Source: Haliotis rufescens
Lineage: Eukaryota
Assembly: GCF_023055435.1 (NCBI RefSeq)
Contig: NW_025964212.1
Coordinates: 1,426,001-1,490,000, forward strand
DNA length: 64,000 nt
Direction of reading: 5' to 3'
In this document: piece after piece, positions 103-36,425 of the stretch
How the letters are laid out: each line of letters begins with the position of its first letter
How positions within the stretch are numbered: the stretch's first letter is position 1
Translations under genes and position numbers: made by a program
The notes under the pieces: generated by a model
The model's database searches: none
Seen by the model: the letters and a program-made list of their open reading frames with translations, nothing else
What the model was told of the DNA's origin: nothing

Positions 103-1780
103 TTGTTTACGAGAAGATGTAATTTTGTTTTAACAAAAGATGTTATAATGGCGTCATAATTAAGTATCTGAGGTGGCGGTTAAAATCTGCTTTTTCAGAT
201 GAAAATAATGTGATTGTATTATATTAGAGTAATTCATTATTCCGGAAACATGAACATCCGGAAGATTTCACGTGGAAAAAAAAAGTCTGCGTTATAGTTT
301 CTGTGTACTGCTGAAATACACCGTTGACTAGAACATGAAAAATAGCATGAAGCCACTTATGGTTTTTTTTAGCTTTCTTTGTCTTGACCCATTTCTCCAT
401 GTAACAAGACTTTTGGGGATGCAAGACGTTGCCATGAATCTCAGATAATTATGACTATCTTAACTTGGCTCTCTTCTATAAGAACACACCATCACTGGAA
501 TGGAAATCAGCGATGTTTAGGTATTCCGTATATTACAGGTTTCATTTGCATGATAACTGGAGACCAACATCAATATTGATAATCTTCTGTAAAAAGGGTT
601 TGATCAATACATGTCCTTATAGATGAAGATAATTTTCTTTTGAAGCGTATGAAAAATGTTATTAACTGATTTCATAAGCCATTGAATGCTGTTTATATTC
701 CTCGACTGACACAGCATTACCACACAAAATAGCGAAATAAGTCACATCGACATTTTTTATATCCAGCTGTTGTGCTTGTATTAGGATGACAAGATATTCA
801 GTTAACGTCCTTCTCCGGTACATCAATGTTCATGTCAGAATGTATCGTTGGCATTCAGTGCTATAAAAGGGTGCGATCGTATTTGGCAAAACATAAGCGG
901 TGACCTTTTTTCTTAATATTAAAGTTATTTCAAGGTGTTGATCTCAAAGAAAAGCATTCGTTATTATGAAACTTCAAGCGCCTGAATCAAGCAGTAAATC
1001 GCTACAACATAAAGTTTATCCGTCAAAGAGAAACTTCAACATAGGACCAAACAGAACGCAAAGCTTTGATAACTAGCAGCTGAAGGTTGGCAAGTGTAAT
1101 GAAACTGAAAGAAAGGCTGGGGCATGTGGAAAAAGTAAGTTAATTATTGTAATAGCTGACGAAATGGGAGTTAATAAGAGGCTTTGAAACATGAAGCATG
1201 TAAGGTGATTATGTTATTACTTCTTTTGTGATGATTGACAATGAGTGACTAAAAACACGGGAAATATATATCAAGAATGTCAGTGGAAGTAAACCGACAC
1301 GTCGACGAATGTTTTGTTTTTAAAATAGTGCAAGAGACATGCAAAGAGTGATTGCGTTGGGTTTAAAGTCGTCTTGAAATGTACTTTAAATATATCACGA
1401 AATATGGAATAAATGAAAGCGACAAAATCCTTTCATAATTATTAGAAGGTAATGCACAGGAAAGCCATAATAACGCATGTCGTATACGTTTACCACTCCT
1501 GGAAACCCACGAACACCACTGACAGATTCAGGATTATTACTGTGGCAGAAATGTGTTAAACCAGACTTACATTATCCGACGAGTCAGTACCGTTGTCAGT
1601 TCATATTCCCTGGTATTATTGTTTGACATTCTCTGTAGGGGTTTCTGACATTCCCCGAAAAGCCTACTTTGGAATGCACTGGAACTTAACCTACATGTAC
1701 ATGTAAGGTCGTCGTTATTATAAACACAGGCTGAATCATTTATGAAGATATACATGCAATTGGTTTGTGTTTCAAAATTT

Positions 1781-2049
1781 GGTTGGTTGGTTGGTTTGTT
1801 GTTTAACGCCTCACTCAGCAATATTCCAGCTATATGACGGCGGTCTGAAAAAAATCGAGTCTCGACCAGACAATCCAGTGATTGACATCATGAGCATCAA
1901 TCCACGCAATTGGGATCAATGACATTCATCAACCAAGACAGCGAGCCTGACCACCCGATCTGTTTTGTCGCCTCTTACGACAAACATAGTCGCCTGTTAC
2001 AGCAAGCATGGGTTGCTGAAGACATGGTCTACCCCGGATCTTCACGGGT
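1781..2049 (-). mobile_element. SINE-like family A, full length
   Basis: Reverse complement of the ~270 bp GACCCGTGAAG...CGGCGTTAAACAAC(AACC)n consensus. Confidence 0.9.
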
Positions 2050-3354: not shown

Positions 3355-3436
3355 GAGGGTACAATGGGTGCTATCCCCCGCCGTGATATTGCTGGAATGT
3401 TGCTAAAAGCGGCGTCAAACCAAACTCACTCACTCA
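3355..3436 (+). mobile_element. SINE family D 3' fragment
   Basis: GGGTACAATG...CGCCGTGATATTGCTGGAATGTTGCTAAAAGCGGCG...(CTCA)n, as in the copy at 56129. Confidence 0.7.
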
Positions 3437-3774
3437 AATAAGTCTATGATAAAAGTGTGCCATCAAATCACTAGAAAATCAAAATTATGGGTCGTTAATT
3501 CTCACAAGGAATGCAAAAACACTGGACAATGATGATGGTGACGGAAGCCAACAATTAAAGCGAGGGAACGCTGCGGTCACTAGACCGTGACTAGACTAGT
3601 TTTTGACCCTTTGACAGGGTCAAATCTAATTTTCAAGTGTATACTTTCTTTTGCTTGGTAAGTTAGTTTAATGTAATATATGAATGCTCTGGGGACATCT
3701 GGAATCTAGTCATGCTGTGTTGTAACCGAAAGAACGGAGTACCCATGGTTTATGTTTTCTCTCTAACGGAATGA

Positions 3775-4046
3775 GACCCGTGAAGATTCCAGGGTAGAAT
3801 AGGCCTTCAGGGACCCATGCTTGCCGTAAAAGGTGACTATGCTTGTCGTAAAAGGCGACTAACGGGATCGGGTTGTCAGGCTCGCTGACTTGGTTGATGC
3901 ATGTCATTGATCCCAATTGCGTGGATCGATGCTCATGATATTAATCACTGGATTCTCTGGTCCAGACTCGATTATTTACAGACCGCCGTCATATAGCTGG
4001 AATATTGCTGAGTGCGGCGTTAACAACAAACCAACCAACCAACCAA
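3775..4046 (+). mobile_element. SINE-like family A, full length with TSD
   Basis: Starts GACCCG and ends in an (AACC)n tail. 12-bp TSD TCTAACGGAATG at 3762-3773 and 4047-4058. Confidence 0.95.
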
Positions 4047-5209
4047 TCTAACGGAATGTTAAGTATTATTCTTCGACCTCTTAGATTATTTCAAAGTTAA
4101 TGTTGTTTATAATCCGTTGACTTTATCTTGTATATTCGTTGTACCATGAATACAGACATTTTACCTGTAAATTGCTGTCAAACAACGGTTCGATGCAGAC
4201 ATGCTTATGATATAGTCGGAATCGTACAATGGCCTCTCCTGTCAGCAGAAGATCTTATGATTATTGACAGGACTTTTCCAAAAGGAGCATATGGTTAGGC
4301 AGATGGAGATGTTTCAAGTAATCTGTTCATTGTATGGCATCAAATATGATTCTCTAAGCGTCACACAAATATCCATGCAAAGCCCTTAAACAATATTAAA
4401 AGGAGTGCACCGTGTGACTGAACATGTGTGTAGAACCTTGACAACCTCAAGTTTGAACAATGATTGATCTAATGAACCCACGTCTATCCTCTAAATTGCC
4501 AGGAAACAGGGAAGAACGTTACATGTAGATTCGTCGTGTTGCCTCGCAATTTGACTTTTGATAGACAGTTCTGACAGTTCTAATGTCAGCCGTCAAGAGG
4601 GATGTAATATCAGAAAGAAAATGCACACGAAATGCTGGTGATTTGTCAAGAAAAACGCCTCGTTGGATAATGACCTATTGATTGCGTGTAGTGATGAAAT
4701 GTGTACATATGAATGCGATGGGAAAGGAATTGAGAAGAGTCATCTGGAATAAACAAGAAAATTGAATTGAGAATCGTCCTTTTCACTGCAATTGATAGCT
4801 GGACACTCGAAAGTTTTCGAATAAAAAATATCTTGAACAGTATATAAAAAAATATAATGATATGGCAGTACACAATCGTCAATGTTTTCGAAAACACGAT
4901 GGTACATTGTACAAGTGCAAAGAGTGCAGCTCGTCATGCTGTATTCTTGTTAGCGATATACTTGATATAACGACGAGACAGCTATTGTCGTCACAGATGA
5001 AACGTCAGGAAGCATCGCACAGTCTGTAATCTGAAATCATTACACGTACATTGTATATGGCTCATAGCGGAAAAAATTGTACTGTGAAGATTCCAGGTTA
5101 TAATTGATCTTGTGAGTAGGTTAGTTGGGTGTAATGCAGCTGTGAACAGTATTCCAGTTTTATCACGGCGTTGAAGTTTAAGGTAGGAGGATAGCCCGAA
5201 GTGATGCAG

Positions 5210-10927: not shown

Positions 10928-11181
10928 GTTTGTTTGTTTTTTACGCCGCACTCCGCAATATTCCAGCTATATGACGGCGGTCTGTAAATAATCGAGTCTA
11001 GACCAGACAGTCCAGTGATTGATATCATGAGCATCGATCCACGCAATTGGGATCGATGACTTTCAAGTCAGCGAGCCTGACCACCCGATCCCGTTAGTCG
11101 CCTTTTACGACAAGCATAGTCGCCTTTTACGGGAAGCATGGGTTGCTGAAGACCTATTCTACCCCGGAATCTTCACGGGTC
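10928..11181 (-). mobile_element. SINE-like family A
   Basis: Reverse complement of the consensus, ending ...CTTCACGGGTC. Confidence 0.9.
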
Positions 11182-13736: not shown

Positions 13737-14165
13737 GACCCGTGAAGATACCGGGGTAGAATAGGTCTTCAGCAACCCATGCTTGCCGTAAAGGGTGACT
13801 ATGCTTGTCGTAAAAGGCGACTGACGGGATCGGGTGGTCAGGCTCGCTGACTTGGTTGATTTGTTTCTATAAAATAATTTAGGTTTTCTGATAAGAAAGA
13901 TTGGGTGAGTGATTTGGGTTTAACGCCGCTTTGATTCTGATTAGAAACTGTATGGGAGTTTTTAAGTGATTGACAACTAGAATAAATTTCTCAGTGCTCT
14001 GTTTTTTTATTTAACACCGCCGTCAGCAATGTTATAGATATTTGACGATGTGTAAATCAATGATATTAATCACTGGATTGTCTGGTCCACATTCGATTAT
14101 TTACAGACCGCCGTCACATAGCTGGAATATTGCTGAGCGAGGCGTTGAATAATAAACAAACAAAT
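13737..14165 (+). mobile_element. SINE-like family A split by ~200 bp of other sequence
   Basis: 5' half at 13737-13860 and 3' half at ~14060-14165. Confidence 0.8.
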
Positions 14166-15246: not shown

Positions 15247-15514
15247 GACCCGTGAAGATTCCGGGGTAGAATAGGTCTTCAGCAACCCATACTTGCCGTA
15301 AAAGGCGACTATGCTTGTCGTAAAAGGCGACTAACGGGATCGGGTGGTCAGGCTCGCTGACTTGGTTGATAGATGTCATCGATCCCAATTGCGTGGATCG
15401 ATGTTCATGATATTAATCACTGGATTGTCTGGTCCAGACTCGATTATTTACAGACCGCCGTCATATAGCTGGAATATTGCTGAGTGCGACGTTACACAAC
15501 AAACCAAGCAACCA
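15247..15514 (+). mobile_element. SINE-like family A with TSD
   Basis: TSD ACTATATGGTAGAA at 15233-15246 and 15515-15528. Confidence 0.95.
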
Positions 15515-18500
15515 ACTATATGGTAGAAGAGAGTTGTTCTGTATATACTGATCTTGTTTTATAAATTAGCTTTTAATTCACTTTAGTATTTTGTCAGTAA
15601 TGTATATTTGTATACAGCAATGACTTATTGTATTTCTCATTTCAGGCTGCATAAGATGTTTAAGTTTGTTTACAACTTGTCGTAAGAAGCGACAAACGGG
15701 ATTGGGTATATGTCATTATATTTGAATTGGAATTTGTATCCCAAACACGTACCCATATACATACATATAACATGTTTCACATGTTCTCAATTATTGACTT
15801 TCGTATACAGTAAACGGCTCAAATTAATCGTATTTTTTTCGTCGTGGATTATGTCTAAACGTAATCGTCTTACGGTTTCAAAGCATTTACCTTTCAGGCA
15901 GCTGTCAATAACTATCTTGGAATGTATCCAAAGCCATTCGCATACTGATATTACATGGTGTTTACGACAGCAATGCTCGTCATCCATTAGGATATGTTTA
16001 TATATGATATGACTTATGCATGCATTGCGGGCGCGCCGTATTTTGAACGATTTATTTCCGGGTTCCTGTCAGATAGGCCTCGTGTTCGATTCCCTCATGA
16101 ATATTCAGGAAGGAATTTTAAGAATGACGTGTCTGATGTGTCGTTTCATCTTAAATCCAGATCAGGGGATACACCTTTATTTTCCAAGGCAATTCAGACG
16201 TCGGTATAACCAGAAACTAAAAACTCAATAAACACAGGACACTTCCAACAATGTTGCCACGACCTTACATGACAGTGGACAGAGAAAGAGAATATACTGT
16301 TTCAAAAAGATGGTTTAACACTGTTTTTATGATTTTCCAACTTCGCCTAAACGTCACAATAAAACTATGTCTAAACGTAATAGTCTAACTGTTTCAAAGC
16401 ATTTACCTTTCAGGCATCTGTCAATAACTATCTTGGAATGTATCCAAAGCCATTCGCCTACTGATATTATTTGGTGATTACGACAGCAATGCTCGTCACC
16501 CAAATCAAATCCATGTGATACAACACCTGTAATTACCATCATAATACATTGTATCTACACTTCATCTGGTCTGTGCTTTAATCAAAACGTCTTATTTAAA
16601 CGCAAAGAATCTCATAACCTACTTTCGCCTCAATTAACACGATTTCTAAATGACTGTCATTGATCTCGTCTTACATATACATGATAGAGTCTCAGAAGGT
16701 AATTTGTCTGTGATTCTCCGGTTTCAAAACTTAAAAACAACTAAAATGTCACATCCTGCCTTCGCATTTCGAAGGAACAAATCGATAGAGTATTTGCAAT
16801 TTCAGTTTAAAGTTTTAACTTCACATCCAAATGATAGCACTGGGGACAAAGCTATTCGCCCTCAGTATGTGTTGTGCATATTTTGTATACTGTTGGTTTA
16901 GTCTTCGATAAGATGAATTGATTCTTCTGAGTGGAACTTTCTCATCGCCTTGATTTGCATAAGAATGTCTACTGAAGAACACTCAGTGCAAAGTGCTGAG
17001 ACATGTACGTGGTCCTTACACCCATGCTACTTCATATTCCTACGGTAAAGTCCACGTTATACTGGTAATGAAACACGCCTTGGTTTCCGTGGAATGTCAT
17101 CAGGGTGCACGTAATTGACGTAAATGAATGGCTTGGGTTTGTGAAGAAAGTTTAATGTCACGGCATTTAGTGAAACGAGTTGTAATATAAGAGTTGGAGC
17201 TGTAAAAACGGGTATTAGGATTACAGTCACAAAGCGTTTCAGGGGCTACTTTATAAACCTTTCACATTTATAAGACCTCGGTCTAGTGGATAGAGCGTCT
17301 TATCGAAGAGCGAGAAGTCGCTGGTGCGATCCCCTGGCCGCGCCAAACCAGAATACTTTAAGAGATGGTACTTGTTGTTACACTGCCTGTCATTCAGCAT
17401 TTAAGGGATAAAACAAAGACTGGTAGGCGCGGAGTCAGTATAATGTGGGGTGTTCTTGTTAAGCAGAGGTATGGGATTTCAATGGGACCAGACAATCCAG
17501 TGATCGATATTGTGAACACCTATCCACGCCGTAGGTGTACGATGACAAGTAATGAAACACGTCATGGAATGTGACCATCCGATCCATTTGGTCGCCTCTT
17601 ACAGCCAGCATAAGTTGCTGAGGATCTGATCGAACCCAGTTACCCGATGGGGTCCCCGTGAGAGGAAGAATTATTAGTGAACATGTCAATCCGGCATACA
17701 TAGACGCCACTTAATTTATTTCATTTAAGTATCAAACATCTATGCCTTTATATTAACCATCCCATACTTACCTTAGAAAACATTAAGCATCACTCCTTTA
17801 TCTTCATATACACCGAACTTTTTGTTTTATACTGAGTGCGGCGTAAAACAACAAACTAACCAACCAATCATAGCGTCTGTGGTCCAGTCGTCTGATGCAC
17901 AACAGTTCGTTGTCCGGTGTTGCGTTCCTTAGGCGTGCCAGAAACCTATGCTCGACCCTGATTATGATCTTACTAGGTTTGTCGTGCGTTATACTATACT
18001 CTTGTGGTTCATTAAAGAGGTAAACTTGTATGAGCTACATCACTTAGTCCTTTCCTCCCACATTAAGCTGAAACGCCGTGATATAACTGAAATACTCTTA
18101 AAAAGCGGCGTTATACCAAACTGACTCACTAGAATACATTTCAATATGAGTATATCACTTTCTGATAATGTTATTCTGGGTACGATTTTATTAATGATTT
18201 TTCATTTTTGAAAATACACAGAAGGCGGTGCTTCACCTTTTGCAGGTTGCGATAAATGGACTGATCGAATTCAATTCGGAAAACTATAACTACTGTAAGC
18301 TGTGGTATTCACGACCACATGTCAGCTGCAGTCGTTGTTTGTCTGAACAAGCCAATTCAGTGATTGACAGTATGGGCATCGATGTACGCAATTGGTATAC
18401 GATGACATCCATCAACCACTTGCAAGTCCGCGAGTCTGATCACCCGATCCAGTCAGTCGCCTCTTATGACAAGCGCGTGTCATCTGAAGTGTTGATGATG

Positions 18501-19121
18501 TGATAACCACGCTAAGATGGTTTCATTTATGGAGACGCCTTGCAGACCATCGACCAAAACACAGACGTATGGAGCAGCAAATTACCATCAATTCACCAAT
18601 CATGAAACTGAGGTAATAATTAATCAAAGTCGACCACTCGACTTGTACTCGGGGGAGGCCATAATCTCTCAATTTTCTTCCATCCATTGGACACGGACAA
18701 TGTGCGCATTCATATCATTTAACAGGTAAACGGTACGACTTCTCAGCACTAGGACAACACTGTGTATAGAGAAGTCATCAATGTTTTTGCACGAAAGGAC
18801 CAGTCAACAAAAAAATATTGATGAACGGTTGCATGCTGTTTAAAGGGAGACTCCCCTTCAGCACAAGTTTATTTTCCAGTTTTCATATTGTCGTATCAGT
18901 GACTGGGTTTTGTCTTAAACCAGTACTACGGCAGCAAGACTCCAGAAATGGGCTTCGAGCATTGTACCCATGAGGGGTATCCATACCGGGTCGTCTCCCT
19001 GACGAATCTTCCTTGTACAAAGGTAAAATGTTTTGATAATAGCACTAATATTATCCCGAAATTCGTTTTTTTTCGAAGTAGTGCTATATCGAACATGTAA
19101 TTTGTAAAGTTTTCATATACA

Positions 19122-19341
19122 GTTATATGACGGCGGTCTGTAAATAATCGAGTCTGGACCAGACAATCCAGTGATTGATATGAGTATCGATCCATGCAAT
19201 TGGGATCGATGACATGTATCAACCAAGTCAGCGAGCCTGACCACCCGATCCCGTTAGTCGCCTTTTAAGACAAGCATAGTCACCTTTAACGGCAAGTATG
19301 GGTTGCTGAAGACCTATTCTACCGCGGAATCTTCACGGGTC
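19122..19341 (-). mobile_element. SINE-like family A in unit 1 (tail deleted)
   Basis: Same insertion site as 30655-30919. Empty site in unit 2 (~24510). Confidence 0.9.
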
Positions 19342-22093: not shown

Positions 22094-22902
22094 TAAGTAT
22101 GTCTACTGAAGAACACTCAGTGCAAAGTGCTGAGACATGTACGTAGTCCTTACACCAATGCTACTTCATATTCCTACGGTAAAGTCCACGTTATACTGGA
22201 AATGAAACACGCCTTGGTTTCCGTGGAATGTCATCAGGGTGCACGTAATTGACGTAAATGAATGGCTTGGGTTTGTGTAGAAAGTTTAATGTCACGGCAT
22301 TTGGTGAAATGAGTTGTAATTTAAGAGTTGGAGCTGTAAAAACGGGTAATAGGATTACAGTCACGAAGCGTTTCAGGGGCTACTTTATAAACCTTTCACA
22401 TTTATAAGACCTCGGTCTAGTGGATAGAGCGTCTTATCGAAGAGCGGGAAGTCGCTGGTGCGATCCCCTGGCCGCGCCAAACCAGAATACTTTAAGAGAT
22501 GGTACTTGTTGTTACCCTGCCTGTCATTCAGCATTAAAGGGATAACACAAAGACTTGTAGGCGCGGAATCAGTGTAATGTGGGGTGTTCTTGTTAAGCAG
22601 AGGTATGGGATTTCAATGGGACCAGACAATCCAGTGATCGATATTGTGAACACCTATCCACGCCGTAGGTGTACGATGACAAGTTATGAAACACGTCATG
22701 GAATCTGACCACCCGATCCATTTGGTCGCCACTTACGGCCAGCAGATGTTGCTGAGGATCTAAACGAACCCAGTATCCCGATGGTGAAGTATTTGTGAAC
22801 ATGTCAATCCGGCATACATAGACTCAATTTAATTTTTTTAATTTAAGGATCAAACATCTATGCCTTTATATTAACCATCCTATACACACCTTAGAAAACT
22901 TT

Positions 22903-23151
22903 CGGGGTAGAAGAGGTCTTCAGCAACCCATGCTTGCCGTAAAGATGACTATGCTTGTCGTAAAAGGCAACTAACGGGATCGGGTGGTCAGGCTCGCTGA
23001 CTTGGTTGATGCATGTCATCGATCCCAATTGCGTGATTCGATGCTCATGATATTAATCACTGGATTGTCTGGTCCAGACTCGATTATTTTACAGACCGCC
23101 GTCATATAGCTGGAATATTGCTGAGTGCGGCTTTAAACAACAAACCAACCA
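22903..23151 (+). mobile_element. SINE-like family A, 5'-truncated, unit 2
   Basis: TSD ACCTTAGAAAAC. Shared with 29014 and absent from unit 1 (~17770). Confidence 0.9.
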
Positions 23152-27490: not shown

Positions 27491-29013
27491 GTTCTTATAT
27501 ACATACAAGCATACATACATATAATATGTTTCATAATCTACCCATTTATAGCCTTTCGTATATTGGTACAGAACTTCTATTATCCATATCATTTTCGTCG
27601 TGGATTGTGTCTAAACGTAATCGTCTTTCTGTTTCAAAGCATTTACCTTTCAGGCACCTATCAATAACTATCTTGAAATGTATCTAAAGTCATTCGCCTA
27701 CTTGTATTTCACAGTGATTTTTTCAGCTTAGACAGCAATGCAACTCTTCATCCAAATAAATTCATTGATCTAACAATTGTAATTACCATCATCATACTTA
27801 GTGTTTACTCTCTATCTGTTCTGTGCTTTAATCAAAATGGTTCTCCTCAGCAAGACGTCTTATTGAAACCTACTTTGTTCAATGTTAACACGATTGGTAA
27901 ATGACTGTCATTGATCTCGTCTTACCTATACATGATAGAGTCTCAGAAGGTAATTTGTCTGCGATTCTCCGGTTTCAAAACCTGAAAACAACTTAAATGT
28001 TTCATCCTGCCTTCACATTTCGAAAGAAGAAATCGATAGAGTATTTGCAATTTCAGTTTAAAGTATTAACTTCACATTCAAATGATAGCACTGGGGACAT
28101 AGCTGTTCGCCCTCAGTATGTGTTGTGCATATTTTGTATACAGTTGGTTCAGTCTTCGATAAGATGAATTGATTCTTCTGAGGGGAACTTTCTCATCGCC
28201 TTGATTTGTATAAGTATGTCTACTGAAGAACACTAGGTGCAAAGTGCTGAGACATGTACGTGGTCCTTACAGCTACTTCATATTCCTACGGTAAAGTCCA
28301 CGTTATACTGGAAATGAAACACGCCTTGGTTTCCGTGGAATGTCATCAGGGTGCACGTAATTGACGTAAATGAATGGCTTGGGTTTGTGAAGAAAGTTTA
28401 ATGTCACGACATTTGGTGAAATGAGTTGTAATTTAAGAGTTGGAGCTGTAAAAACGGGTAATAGGATTACAGTCACGAAGCGTTTCAGGGGCTACTTTAT
28501 AAACCTTTCACATTTATAAGACCTCGGTCTACTGGATAGAGCGTCTTATCGAAGAGCGTGAAGTCGGTGGTGCGATCCCCTGGCCGCGCCAAACCAGAAT
28601 ACTTTAAGAGATGGTACTTGTTGTTACCCTGCCTGTCACTCGGCATTAAAGGGATAAAACAAAGACTGGTAGGCGCGGAGTCAGTATGAGAGTAGAGTGT
28701 TCATGTTAAGCAGAGGTATGGAATTTCAATGGGACCAGACAATCCAGTGATCGATATTGTGAACACCTATCCACGCCGTAGGTGTACGATGACAAGTTAT
28801 GAAACACGTCTTGGAATCTGACCACCCGATCCATTTGGTCGCCACTTACGGCCAGCAGATGTTGCTGAGGATCTAAACGAACCCAGTATCCCGATGGTGA
28901 ATTATTTGTGAACATGTCAATCCGGAACACATAGACTCAATTTAATTTATTTAATTTAAGGATCAAACATCTATGCCTTGATATTAACCATCCTATACAC
29001 ACCTTAGAAAACT

Positions 29014-29265: not shown

Positions 29266-30654
29266 AAAAAAAACCTTAGAAAACGTTAAGCATCACTCTC
29301 TTATCTTCATATACACCGAACTTTTTGTTTCATACTTAGTGCAGCGTACAACAACAAACCAACAAACCAATCATAGCATCGGTGGTCCAGTCGTCTGATG
29401 CACAACAGTTCGTTGTCCGGTGTTGCGTGCCAGAAACCTATGCTCGTCTCTTATAATGATCTTACTAAGTTTGTCGTGCATTATACCATACTCTTGGGGT
29501 TCATTAAAGTGGTAAACTTGTATGAGGTACATCACTCAGTCCTTTCCTCCAATATTAAGCTGAAACGCCATGATATAACTGAAATACTCTTAAAAAGCGG
29601 CGTTAAACCAAACTGACTCAATATGAGTATATCACTTTCTGATAATGTTATTCTGGGTACGATTTTATTAATGATTTTTCATTTTTGAAAATACACAGAA
29701 GGCGGTGCTTCACCTTTTGCAGGTGGCGACAAATAGACTGATCGAATTCAACTGGGAAAACTATAACTACTGTAAGCTGTAGTATTCACGACCACATGTC
29801 AGCTACAGTCGTTGTTTGTCTGAACAAGCCAATTCAGTGATTGACAGTATGGGCATCGGTGTACGCAATTGGTATACGATGACATCCATCAACCACTTGC
29901 AAGTCCGCGACTCTGATCACCCGCTCAGTCAGTCGCCTCTTATGACAAGCGCGTGTCATCTGCTGTGTTGGTGATGTGATAACCACGCTAAGATGGTTTC
30001 GTTCATGGAGACGCCTTGGAGACTACCGATCAAAAGACAGAAGTATGGAGCAGAAAATTACCATCAATTCACCAATCATGAAACTGAGGTAATAATTAAT
30101 CAAAGTCGACCACTCGGCCTGTACTCGGGGGTGGCCATAATCTCTCAATTTTCTTCCATGCATTTGACACGGACAATGTGCACATTCGTATCAAGTAACA
30201 AGTAAACGGTACGACTTCTCAGCACTAGGACAACACTGTGTATAGTGCAGTGATCAATGTTTTCCCCCCGAAAGGATCAGTCAACAAAAAATATTGATGA
30301 ACGGTTGCATACTGTTTAAAGGGAGACTGCCCTTCAGCACAAGTTTATTTTCCAGTTTCCTTATGGTCGTATTAGTGACTGGGTTTTGTCTTAAGCCAGT
30401 ATTACGGCAGCAAGACGTCAGAAATGGGCTTCGAGCATTGTACCCATGAGGGGTATCCATACCGGGTCGTCTCCCTGAGGAATCTTCCTTGTACAAAGGT
30501 AAAATGTTTTGATAATAGCACTAATGTTGACATTAACCCCAAATTCGTTTTTTTCGAAGTAGTGCTATATCGAACATGTTATTTGTAAATTTTTCATATA
30601 CAAATGTTCATATTGTCACTTCGGTGAGATTAAGTATCAGCATAATAAAGGTAT

Positions 30655-30919
30655 TGGTTTGGTTTGTTGTTTAACGCCGCACTCAGCAATTTTCCAGCTA
30701 TATGACGGCGGTCTGTAAATAATCGAGTCTGGACCAGACAATACAGTGATTGATATCATGAGTATCGATCCATGTAATTGGGATCGATGACATGTATCAG
30801 CCAAGTCAGCGAGTCTGACCACCCGATCCCGTTAGTCGCCTTTTACGATAGGCATAGTCACCTTTTACGGCAAGCATGGGTTGCTGAAGACCTATTCTAC
30901 CCCGGAACCTTCACGGGTC
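30655..30919 (-). mobile_element. SINE-like family A with TSD, unit 3
   Basis: TSD ATAATAAAGG on both sides. Confidence 0.92.
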
Positions 30920-31383: not shown

Positions 31384-31653
31384 GACCCGTGAAGATTCTG
31401 GGGTAGAATAGGTCTTCAGCAACCCATGCTTGCCGTAAAAGGTGACTATGCTTGTCGTAAAAGGCGACTAATGGGATCGGGTCGTCAGGCTCGCTGATTT
31501 GGTTGATGCATGTCATCGATCCAAATTGCGTGGATCGATGCTCATATCAATCACTGGATTGTCTGGTCCAGACTCGATTATTTACAGACCGCCGTCATAT
31601 AGCTGTAATATTGCTGAGTGCAGTGTTAAACGACAAACCAACCAACCAACCAA
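31384..31653 (+). mobile_element. SINE-like family A, seen only in unit 3
   Basis: TSD TTTGAGCT. Empty site in unit 2 (~24963). Confidence 0.92.
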
Positions 31654-36177: not shown

Positions 36178-36425
36178 TGTTTGTTTGTTGTTTAACGCCG
36201 CACATAGCAATATTCCAGCTATATGACGGCGGTGTGTAAAAAATCGAGTCTGGACCAGGCAGTCCAGTTGTTGACATCATGAGCATCGATCCACACAATT
36301 GAGACACAATGACATGCATCAACCAAGTCAGCGAGCCTGCCCACCCGATCTTACGACAAGCATAGTCGCCTTTTTCGGCAAGCATGGGTTGCTGAAGACC
36401 TTTTCTACCCCGGATCTTCACGGGT
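36178..36425 (-). mobile_element. SINE-like family A
   Basis: Matches the reverse consensus. Confidence 0.88.

Follow-up and report, generated by a model that had tools for sequence, protein, structure and literature searches.

How does a retroposon that carries no recognizable RNA polymerase III promoter acquire a sharply defined 5′ end? This question is raised by the most abundant SINE-like family in the window (the whole 64,000-nucleotide stretch of Haliotis rufescens DNA analyzed here). The initial annotation, made from the sequence alone, had counted about 18 copies, described a fixed 5′ G directly after the target-site duplication (TSD) and a lack of A and B boxes, and suggested a self-processing RNA. 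The copy number held up: BLAST with the copy at position 3775 returned 42 HSPs, 18 of them near-complete or 5′-complete fragments. The annotation’s 22-mer matched 31 times in the window and not once in 100 shuffles, and our covariance model located 26 heads. Genome-wide, one exact head pattern recovered at least 10,740 heads in 1.33 Gb. Strict A and B boxes were indeed not found in these elements, and ARAGORN predicted no tRNA gene; we detected only loose A-like words with one mismatch in the head and one B-like word with two mismatches in the body, at about +150. Rfam and ARAGORN revealed no tRNA, 5S, 7SL or other small-RNA homology in the head, so the family lacks the signature of a Pol III SINE.

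The copy at 3775..4046 (forward strand) represents the complete element. It is flanked by a 12-bp left TSD (3762..3773), followed by one extra A at 3774, and by the right TSD (4047..4058). Behind the head lies the SINE body (3868..3982), and then a 3′ tail (3983..4046) resembling those of Nimb/I-type LINEs and ending in (CAAC)n; SINE and LINE tails align with a mean column identity of 75%. The body includes the GUCAG/CUGAC hairpin (3875-3889), which had been placed in the fold of the head: the hairpin exists, but as a part of the SINE body, and none of the other families that we read has it.

All seven copies named by the annotation begin with GACCCG in the BLAST alignments, but a G directly abutting the TSD was found in only two of them. 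The forward-strand copy at 15247..15516 has a perfect 14-bp TSD abutting the G, and that at 31384..31652 (forward) is gapless but has an imperfect TSD with one mismatch. One extra base intervenes at 3775 and in the full reverse-strand copy at 30654..30919; no TSD was found for the full copy at 10928..11181 (reverse) or for the 3′-truncated copy at 19120..19341 (reverse), and the 5′ part at 13737..13860 (forward) is broken after 124 nt. Two further reverse-strand copies, the full one at 1780..2049 and a single-hairpin one at 36179..36425, lack the 5′ G. The copies at 19341 and 30919, as well as those at 22905 and 29018, share their flanks through segmental duplication and are therefore not independent insertions. 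A segmental repeat, ~5-6 kb long, occurs three to four times between 16.6 and 34.6 kb of the window at 92-98% identity and duplicates several SINE insertions.

The family is very likely a known one. In length, head and tail type, on which the assignment rests, it corresponds to Hdi_LP, one of the LP-SINEs reported from abalone and other molluscs (Matetovici 2016, PMC4758252; this paper is cited here from its accessible part). Like the published Hdi_LP, Hmi_LP, Lsa_2 and Sgl_LP, it is about 255 bp long (the length of the Hdi_LP consensus), is flanked by TSDs, ends in short tandem repeats, and carries a LINE-derived head in place of a tRNA head. In that paper, a head of ~70 bp is common to Hdi_LP, Nimb-17_LMi, I-3_DR and RTE-9_CPB, and is presumed to be a promoter. 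The scallop rows labeled “Nimb-17 homology” in its supplement contain the same hairpin, the same AGAAU word and a covarying first stem as our copies, supporting homology of the head to the Nimb-17 5′ UTR, as do the LINEs of the abalone genome described below. An identity with MetaSINEs of the MESC type was ruled out, since the MESC rows of the supplement are a different sequence and the type needs a tRNA head; an identity with the Ceph domain/RTE 5′ region was also rejected, no word of the motif occurring anywhere in the supplement of PMC5786205. Separately, we observed three loci in metagenomic host DNA (L048, L064, L115) where the motif and a tRNA-like, A-box-like segment directly downstream of it form a fusion, comparable to the scallop MESC SINEs.

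To collect homologues, we searched with a 17-mer of the conserved hairpin, which recovered 7 viral, at least 120 metagenomic and 46 bacterial-genome stretches. Most metagenomic matches read as heads of several repeat families, probably originating from animal host DNA. Among the bacterial matches most are the bare 17-mer. In about nine it is accompanied by further parts of the motif, and in two of these (L197 and L179) the head is followed by an animal LINE ORF1, which probably reflects host contamination. Neither ORF1 fragment gave a useful Pfam match. Using SINE-like patterns from the abalone genome as a LINE search yielded only SINE copies, but the ORF1 of L197 proved to have many relatives in that genome: the head was present on the same strand at 22 of 25 fetched loci, ~530-660 nt upstream of the ORF1 match. 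The module thus heads Nimb/I-type LINEs in H. rufescens. Full-length elements with APE, RT and RNase H start at the head; L518 and L519 are 5.8 kb long, encode ORFs of 436-438 and 1238 aa, and have TSDs abutting the head, and the three domains were identified in ORF2 of L518. The proposal that the head is a structured RNA derived from a LINE 5′ end is supported by these loci, together with the covariation described below.

The 22 head-bearing LINE loci differ in where they begin. The head forms the very start of five of them, a further one is truncated inside the head, and sixteen start 58 nt earlier. In these sixteen, the additional segment can adopt a minimal HDV-like fold, comprising P1 with a G1·U pair, P3, an L3 of UCCUCGU, GG, a CUAA joiner and P2. 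The Rfam HDV model gave this fold 27.5 bits (E 0.07), below its gathering threshold of 44, and covered only the upstream 57 nt. Two 6.2-kb, two-ORF copies (L521 and L523) have TSDs abutting the HDV G1, and the HDV-headed LINEs keep the head module intact. This young Nimb/I-type family (L499:811-868, L506, L510, L521 and L523; ~900 copies) appears to carry a candidate ribozyme of only 58 nt, with a tiny P4. In the accessible part of PMC5786205, the clades listed with HDV-like ribozymes are R1, R2, R4, RTE, Ingi as well as LOA, and Nimb is not named among them. HDV-headed LINEs (L501, L506, L509, L514) often lie inside apparent copies of other LINEs and are clustered on certain contigs.

The motif also occurs in viruses. 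Seven IMG/VR contigs, representing six virus types of which five are clearly RNA viruses, contain the full motif in sense orientation, 4-201 nt past the last stop codon and within ~200 nt of the contig end. RdRp domains were detected in four of the seven and capsid domains only in the other three (two with a tetravirus-type capsid, one with an S-domain capsid and an unassigned long ORF). The 1217-aa ORF of L368 had no Pfam or PDB match, so its status as an RNA virus rests on its capsid and layout. One of the contigs is Hubei tombus-like virus 21, and two (L368 and L392) contain partial duplications of the motif. Viral copies keep every helix, with compensatory changes of their own. When 79 viral loci were scanned with the model, seven scored strongly, six of which were in the training set. 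Searches for relatives of the motif-bearing viruses returned the same viruses only, and looser viral patterns were discarded, as they added mainly chance matches. A complete motif is also found in the iridovirus IIV-6, an insect DNA virus (L381:5981-6057), between two ORFs on the same strand and ~140 nt before 209R.

With these homologues in hand, the first ~90 bases of the head are predicted to form a conserved, covarying RNA structure that differs from the fold initially proposed. In the threaded architecture, the 5′ strand of stem 1 (4-5 bp) is followed by a single-nucleotide loop, which is U in 20 of the 21 families, and the 5′ strand of stem 2 (7 bp); after zero to one base come the partner of stem 1, a loop of between 6-7 and 67 nt that ends in AGAAU(A), and the partner of stem 2. 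A 3′ domain then consists of stem 3 around GCRU and the GUCG hairpin. For the 3775 copy, all on the forward strand, stem 1 would pair 3776..3780 with 3791-3795 (ACCC/GGGU in this copy), loop 1 is the single U at 3781, and stem 2 (3782..3808) would pair 3782-3788 with 3802-3808, enclosing both the 3′ strand of stem 1 and loop 3 (3796-3801, ending AGAAUA). In the predicted 3′ domain (3813..3867), stem 3 joins 3813-3818 to 3862-3867 around GCUU and the hairpins. These are the conserved hairpin GUCG-UANNAGG-CGAC (3845..3859) and a duplicated, partly decayed copy of it (3823..3837) seen in this SINE subfamily.

To compare this fold with the earlier one, we scored pairing within each family against pairing between swapped families, using the same best-of-offsets search for every hypothesis. 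The set comprised 21 representatives of 28 candidate rows, after seven truncated, duplicated or poorly threaded rows were dropped. Since the families are related, kinship inflates covariation statistics, and the permutation p-values are indicative only. Counting Watson-Crick pairs alone, the score was 4.33 within families versus 3.85 between swapped ones for stem 1 (p=0.0004), and 4.24 versus 3.52 for stem 3 (p=0.00005). The outer stem CCCGU/ACGGG of the initial annotation can form, and appears in single-sequence minimum free energy (MFE) structures, but was not supported by covariation across families (3.57 versus 3.50, p=0.34), although it reached p=0.027 when G·U pairs were allowed. Its pseudoknot between GGGU and a downstream ACCC, which is also formable and present in the MFE, likewise lacked such support (3.67 versus 3.65, p=0.51). 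The partners of the pseudoknot are swapped relative to the earlier model; C/G-rich mollusc copies are compatible with both pairing registers. In the annotated stem UGAAGAU/GUCUUCA, the 3775 copy reads GCCUUCA, which leaves an A·C mismatch. The hairpins are present as described, but the UAA that follows them is not conserved.

Further analyses agreed with the predicted structure. Without guidance, RNAalifold arrived at both stem 2 and the hairpin. Among 29 sequences aligned to the model, 92% of cells were paired, compared with 75% after shuffling, and two-sided changes were found in eight pairs, namely all seven of stem 2 and the sole countable pair of stem 1. The hairpin is invariant in this set because the searches had selected for it. 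Apart from a few decayed copies, the 22 held-out LINE heads obtained through the protein search fit the fold by anchors alone, and in them the hairpin loop reads UANNAGG while the following UAA varies. The G·U pairs point to the sense strand. Folding of single sequences was unremarkable, with a z-score of -0.82 for the 3775 copy and a range of -2.29 to +0.09 over six sequences. No Rfam family matched the fold at E values up to 10.

We next examined what is constant about the 5′ end. Among 57 heads in DNA of the abalone genome, 29 had a TSD of at least 9 bp, and 26 of these 29 start 1-3 nt before CCCG. The letters at the start vary by family. TSD-bearing SINE heads begin with GA in 14 cases and with A in 7; position -2 is G in 19 of 30 SINEs and -1 is A in 21 of 30. 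In LINEs that lack the ribozyme, -2 is T in 24 of 30 (some being duplicates) and -1 is C in 27 of 30. The letters at -3 are mixed in both groups, and no extra G precedes the LINE U (5 of 30 at -3). The fixed 5′ G is accordingly not a conserved property, as the first base is G, A or U depending on the family, with SINEs starting GA and LINEs UC. The constant feature is the distance from the start to stem 1, two bases before CCCG. Across families, the length of loop 3 ranges between 6-7 and 67 nt, so the start keeps no fixed spacing to the conserved words. Metagenomic families contributed little to this analysis, with a TSD called for 6 of 41 heads. In three miRNA-seq runs from one study, the SINE copy received 8, 114 and 13 reads and the HDV-LINE head 0, 56 and 2, mostly antisense and with too few sense reads at the head to be informative; starts did not pile up at either 5′ end. 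The antisense reads include ~30-nt piRNA-like small RNAs with dominant starts, mainly in run X21 (window 15420-15450; L506:873-903 and 988-1019), and one of these sites lies on the LINE pseudoknot.

Could the head generate this end by cutting itself, as initially suggested? A new class of self-cleaving ribozyme acting just 5′ of the G would fit the sharp end, the compact pseudoknot and the conserved single-stranded words, and ribozymes have a precedent at LINE 5′ ends (PMC5786205, accessible part); still, we regard it as highly improbable. Cleavage by the head at its own edge, or a transcription start placed there by it, would make copies of the HDV-headed family begin at the head. All 37 loci of that family that we read start at the HDV G1 position, and a start at the head module is seen in none of the first 100 copies listed. 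The exact ribozyme 3′ end is kept upstream in 863 of 907 heads, and all of the first 100 listed copies retain the separate HDV-like module, including ten exceptions that carry point changes. Moreover, cutting within a linear virus genome, where the motif lies in the 3′ UTR, would be expected to sever the 3′ end, and neither the first base nor the UAA is constant. No hammerhead, twister, pistol or other ribozyme of Rfam matched the head, and threading by eye onto the consensus of twister, pistol and hammerhead failed. A descriptor for HDV-like ribozymes (a 7-bp P1 with G1·U, P3 with L3 UCCUCGY, P1.1, the catalytic C of J4/2, and P2), scanned over 324 cores, fitted no SINE head of this genome; it matched 14 sister-LINE loci, in their upstream module, and the metagenomic locus L145.

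We tentatively favor a different explanation, to which we assign somewhat less than even confidence: the SINE is non-autonomous and LINE-mobilized, and its head, a module taken from the 5′ end of Nimb/I-type LINEs, is a candidate roadblock to 5′→3′ exonucleases rather than a ribozyme. Host promoters would give rise to SINE RNA by read-through. Once decapped or cut upstream, this RNA would be shortened by Xrn1 or Xrn2, and the pseudoknot would halt the enzyme about two bases short of CCCG. The LINE reverse transcriptase would then recognize the common 3′ tail and copy the trimmed RNA, whereby new copies would begin at the same place and be flanked by TSDs. Viral RNA with this fold would be reduced to a stable noncoding fragment of its 3′ end, as happens with exonuclease-resistant RNAs (xrRNAs). 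A roadblock would account both for a 5′ end defined by distance and for the position in viral 3′ UTRs. The broader proposal is plausible at best: that the module constitutes a new class of exonuclease-resistant RNA shared by retrotransposons and RNA viruses, which would yield exact 5′ ends from host read-through RNA with neither promoter nor ribozyme and would make LP-SINEs promoterless elements, their ends carved by the decay enzymes of the host.

The topology of the predicted fold differs from that of well-known xrRNA classes, and no described class was matched in Rfam at E values up to 10. In all seven RNA-virus-like contigs the motif lies in sense near the start of the 3′ UTR, and its pseudoknotted fold is backed by covariation. 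In the accessible part of PMC8826918, xrRNAs are located mostly in 3′ UTRs, with some intergenic. As in the flavivirus sfRNA, RCNMV SR1f and BNYVV ncRNA3, the module is a compact pseudoknot shortly past the last stop, is partly duplicated (in L368 and L392), and shows an RNA end close before its first helix (PMC8826918, accessible part). Unlike them, it has no sequence or Rfam match, is of H-type topology with a one-base loop 1, and also occurs on retrotransposons and a DNA virus; its resistance is putative.

The HDV-headed LINEs are where the roadblock is weighed against the strongest rival. The 5′-OH product of HDV cleavage would be no substrate for Xrn1. The roadblock is compatible with this family but does not explain why the module is retained in it, as such a family should not need an exonuclease block. 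Among the first 100 copies listed, none has its start at the module; this offers nothing positive in favor of stalling and hints at a different function, for instance in translation. Retention of the module is in fact the best argument for a cap-independent translation element, similar to a viral 3′ CITE or an IRES, a candidate role that we consider rather unlikely overall; both roles could coexist. Such an element would recruit initiation factors or ribosomes to LINE RNA left uncapped by HDV cleavage and to uncapped virus RNA, and would keep the SINE near ribosomes making ORF2p. Tombus-like and toti-like viruses, among which the motif is found, are uncapped. The module lies directly behind the HDV-like ribozyme, whose product would be uncapped, in ~900 LINE heads, and upstream of ORF 209R in IIV-6, and its sequence-conserved hairpin loop suggests a binding site. 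However, translation alone leaves the 5′ end fixed two bases before CCCG unexplained, and the module is kept in noncoding SINEs. In addition, a 3′ CITE would have a variable apical loop that pairs with the viral 5′ end. Here the loop is nearly invariant, its complement is absent from the first 200 nt of four of five virus contigs (true 5′ ends perhaps missing), and the one contig that has it is an internal fragment.

The remaining alternatives are weaker. An internal Pol II promoter from the LINE 5′ UTR, starting transcription just before the head, is the “LP” idea proposed from position alone in PMC4758252 (accessible part); the conserved sequence of the core words and the placement of the scallop SINE head upstream of the tRNA part speak for it. 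We find it improbable, as the stems covary as RNA, the start of HDV-headed copies lies another 58 nt upstream, the distance between the start and the conserved words differs by more than 50 nt, and one LINE family starts with U with no extra G before it. RNA viruses would also have no use for a Pol II promoter, which counts against this reading. Slightly less probable still is a candidate signal bound by LINE proteins, serving in packaging or 5′-junction formation, that hitchhiked into viruses in the manner of s2m. The module sits at LINE 5′ ends with or without the ribozyme, and an R2 protein is reported to bind a pseudoknotted RNA (PMC12222951, accessible part), but compensatory changes in the viral copies imply selection in viruses that have no LINE proteins, and the same head is reported on both Nimb and RTE clades (PMC4758252).

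Taken together, the SINE family is very likely known, and its head is a well-supported RNA module, so far undescribed in the sources searched, with a putative function that is probably not that of a ribozyme. In s2m, both sequence and fold differ from those of the module. The two are alike in being highly conserved structured motifs at the 3′ ends of unrelated RNA viruses (PMC3197151, accessible part), but the module also defines retroelement 5′ ends. HDV-like ribozymes, found at the 5′ ends of R2, RTE, Ingi/L1Tc and LOA elements (cited in PMC5786205, accessible part), share with it the location and the precise start of non-LTR elements. The module, by contrast, has no P1, P3 or L3 in the descriptor scan, and the true HDV-like fold is a separate upstream unit in one LINE family. 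Neither Rfam nor the literature searched (subscription papers, figures, bioRxiv supplements and Repbase lay outside the search) yielded an account of this fold, of its presence in viruses or of its tandem with the HDV-like module. The accessible part of PMC4758252 presumes a promoter, gives no structure, names the 77-bp trypanosome ribozyme only as an analogy, and mentions neither the viral occurrence nor the HDV tandem.

The same paper called in 2016 for experiments on LP-SINEs, and the source of the 5′ ends of LP-SINE and many Nimb/I LINE RNAs has been open since. Our analysis offers a defined fold of ~80 nt, compensatory pairs that can be mutated, and a natural control within one genome, namely LINEs with and without the upstream HDV-like ribozyme. 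If true, the roadblock would join internal promoters and ribozymes as a third way for retroelements to obtain their 5′ ends, and would mean that viruses and transposons have RNA-stability parts in common. A translation element, if true, would account for the translation of uncapped LINE RNA after ribozyme cleavage.

Several other repeats accompany this family. The copies at 17576-17652, 22710-22787 and 28823-28900 (reverse strand) form an older subfamily that has diverged; its head is decayed and its body longer. A second repeat family with the same 3′ tail and a LINE-like (ACTC)n end occurs at 3378, 23427, 39298, 44378, 56232 and 59403. The tRNA-like head of another SINE was seen at L003:2218-2289 (reverse strand; Rfam tRNA 25.8 bits, below gathering). 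Finally, 7 of 30 unbiased head matches (L594-L596, L613, L614, L616 and L617) consist of the SINE head's pseudoknot part repeated in tandem.
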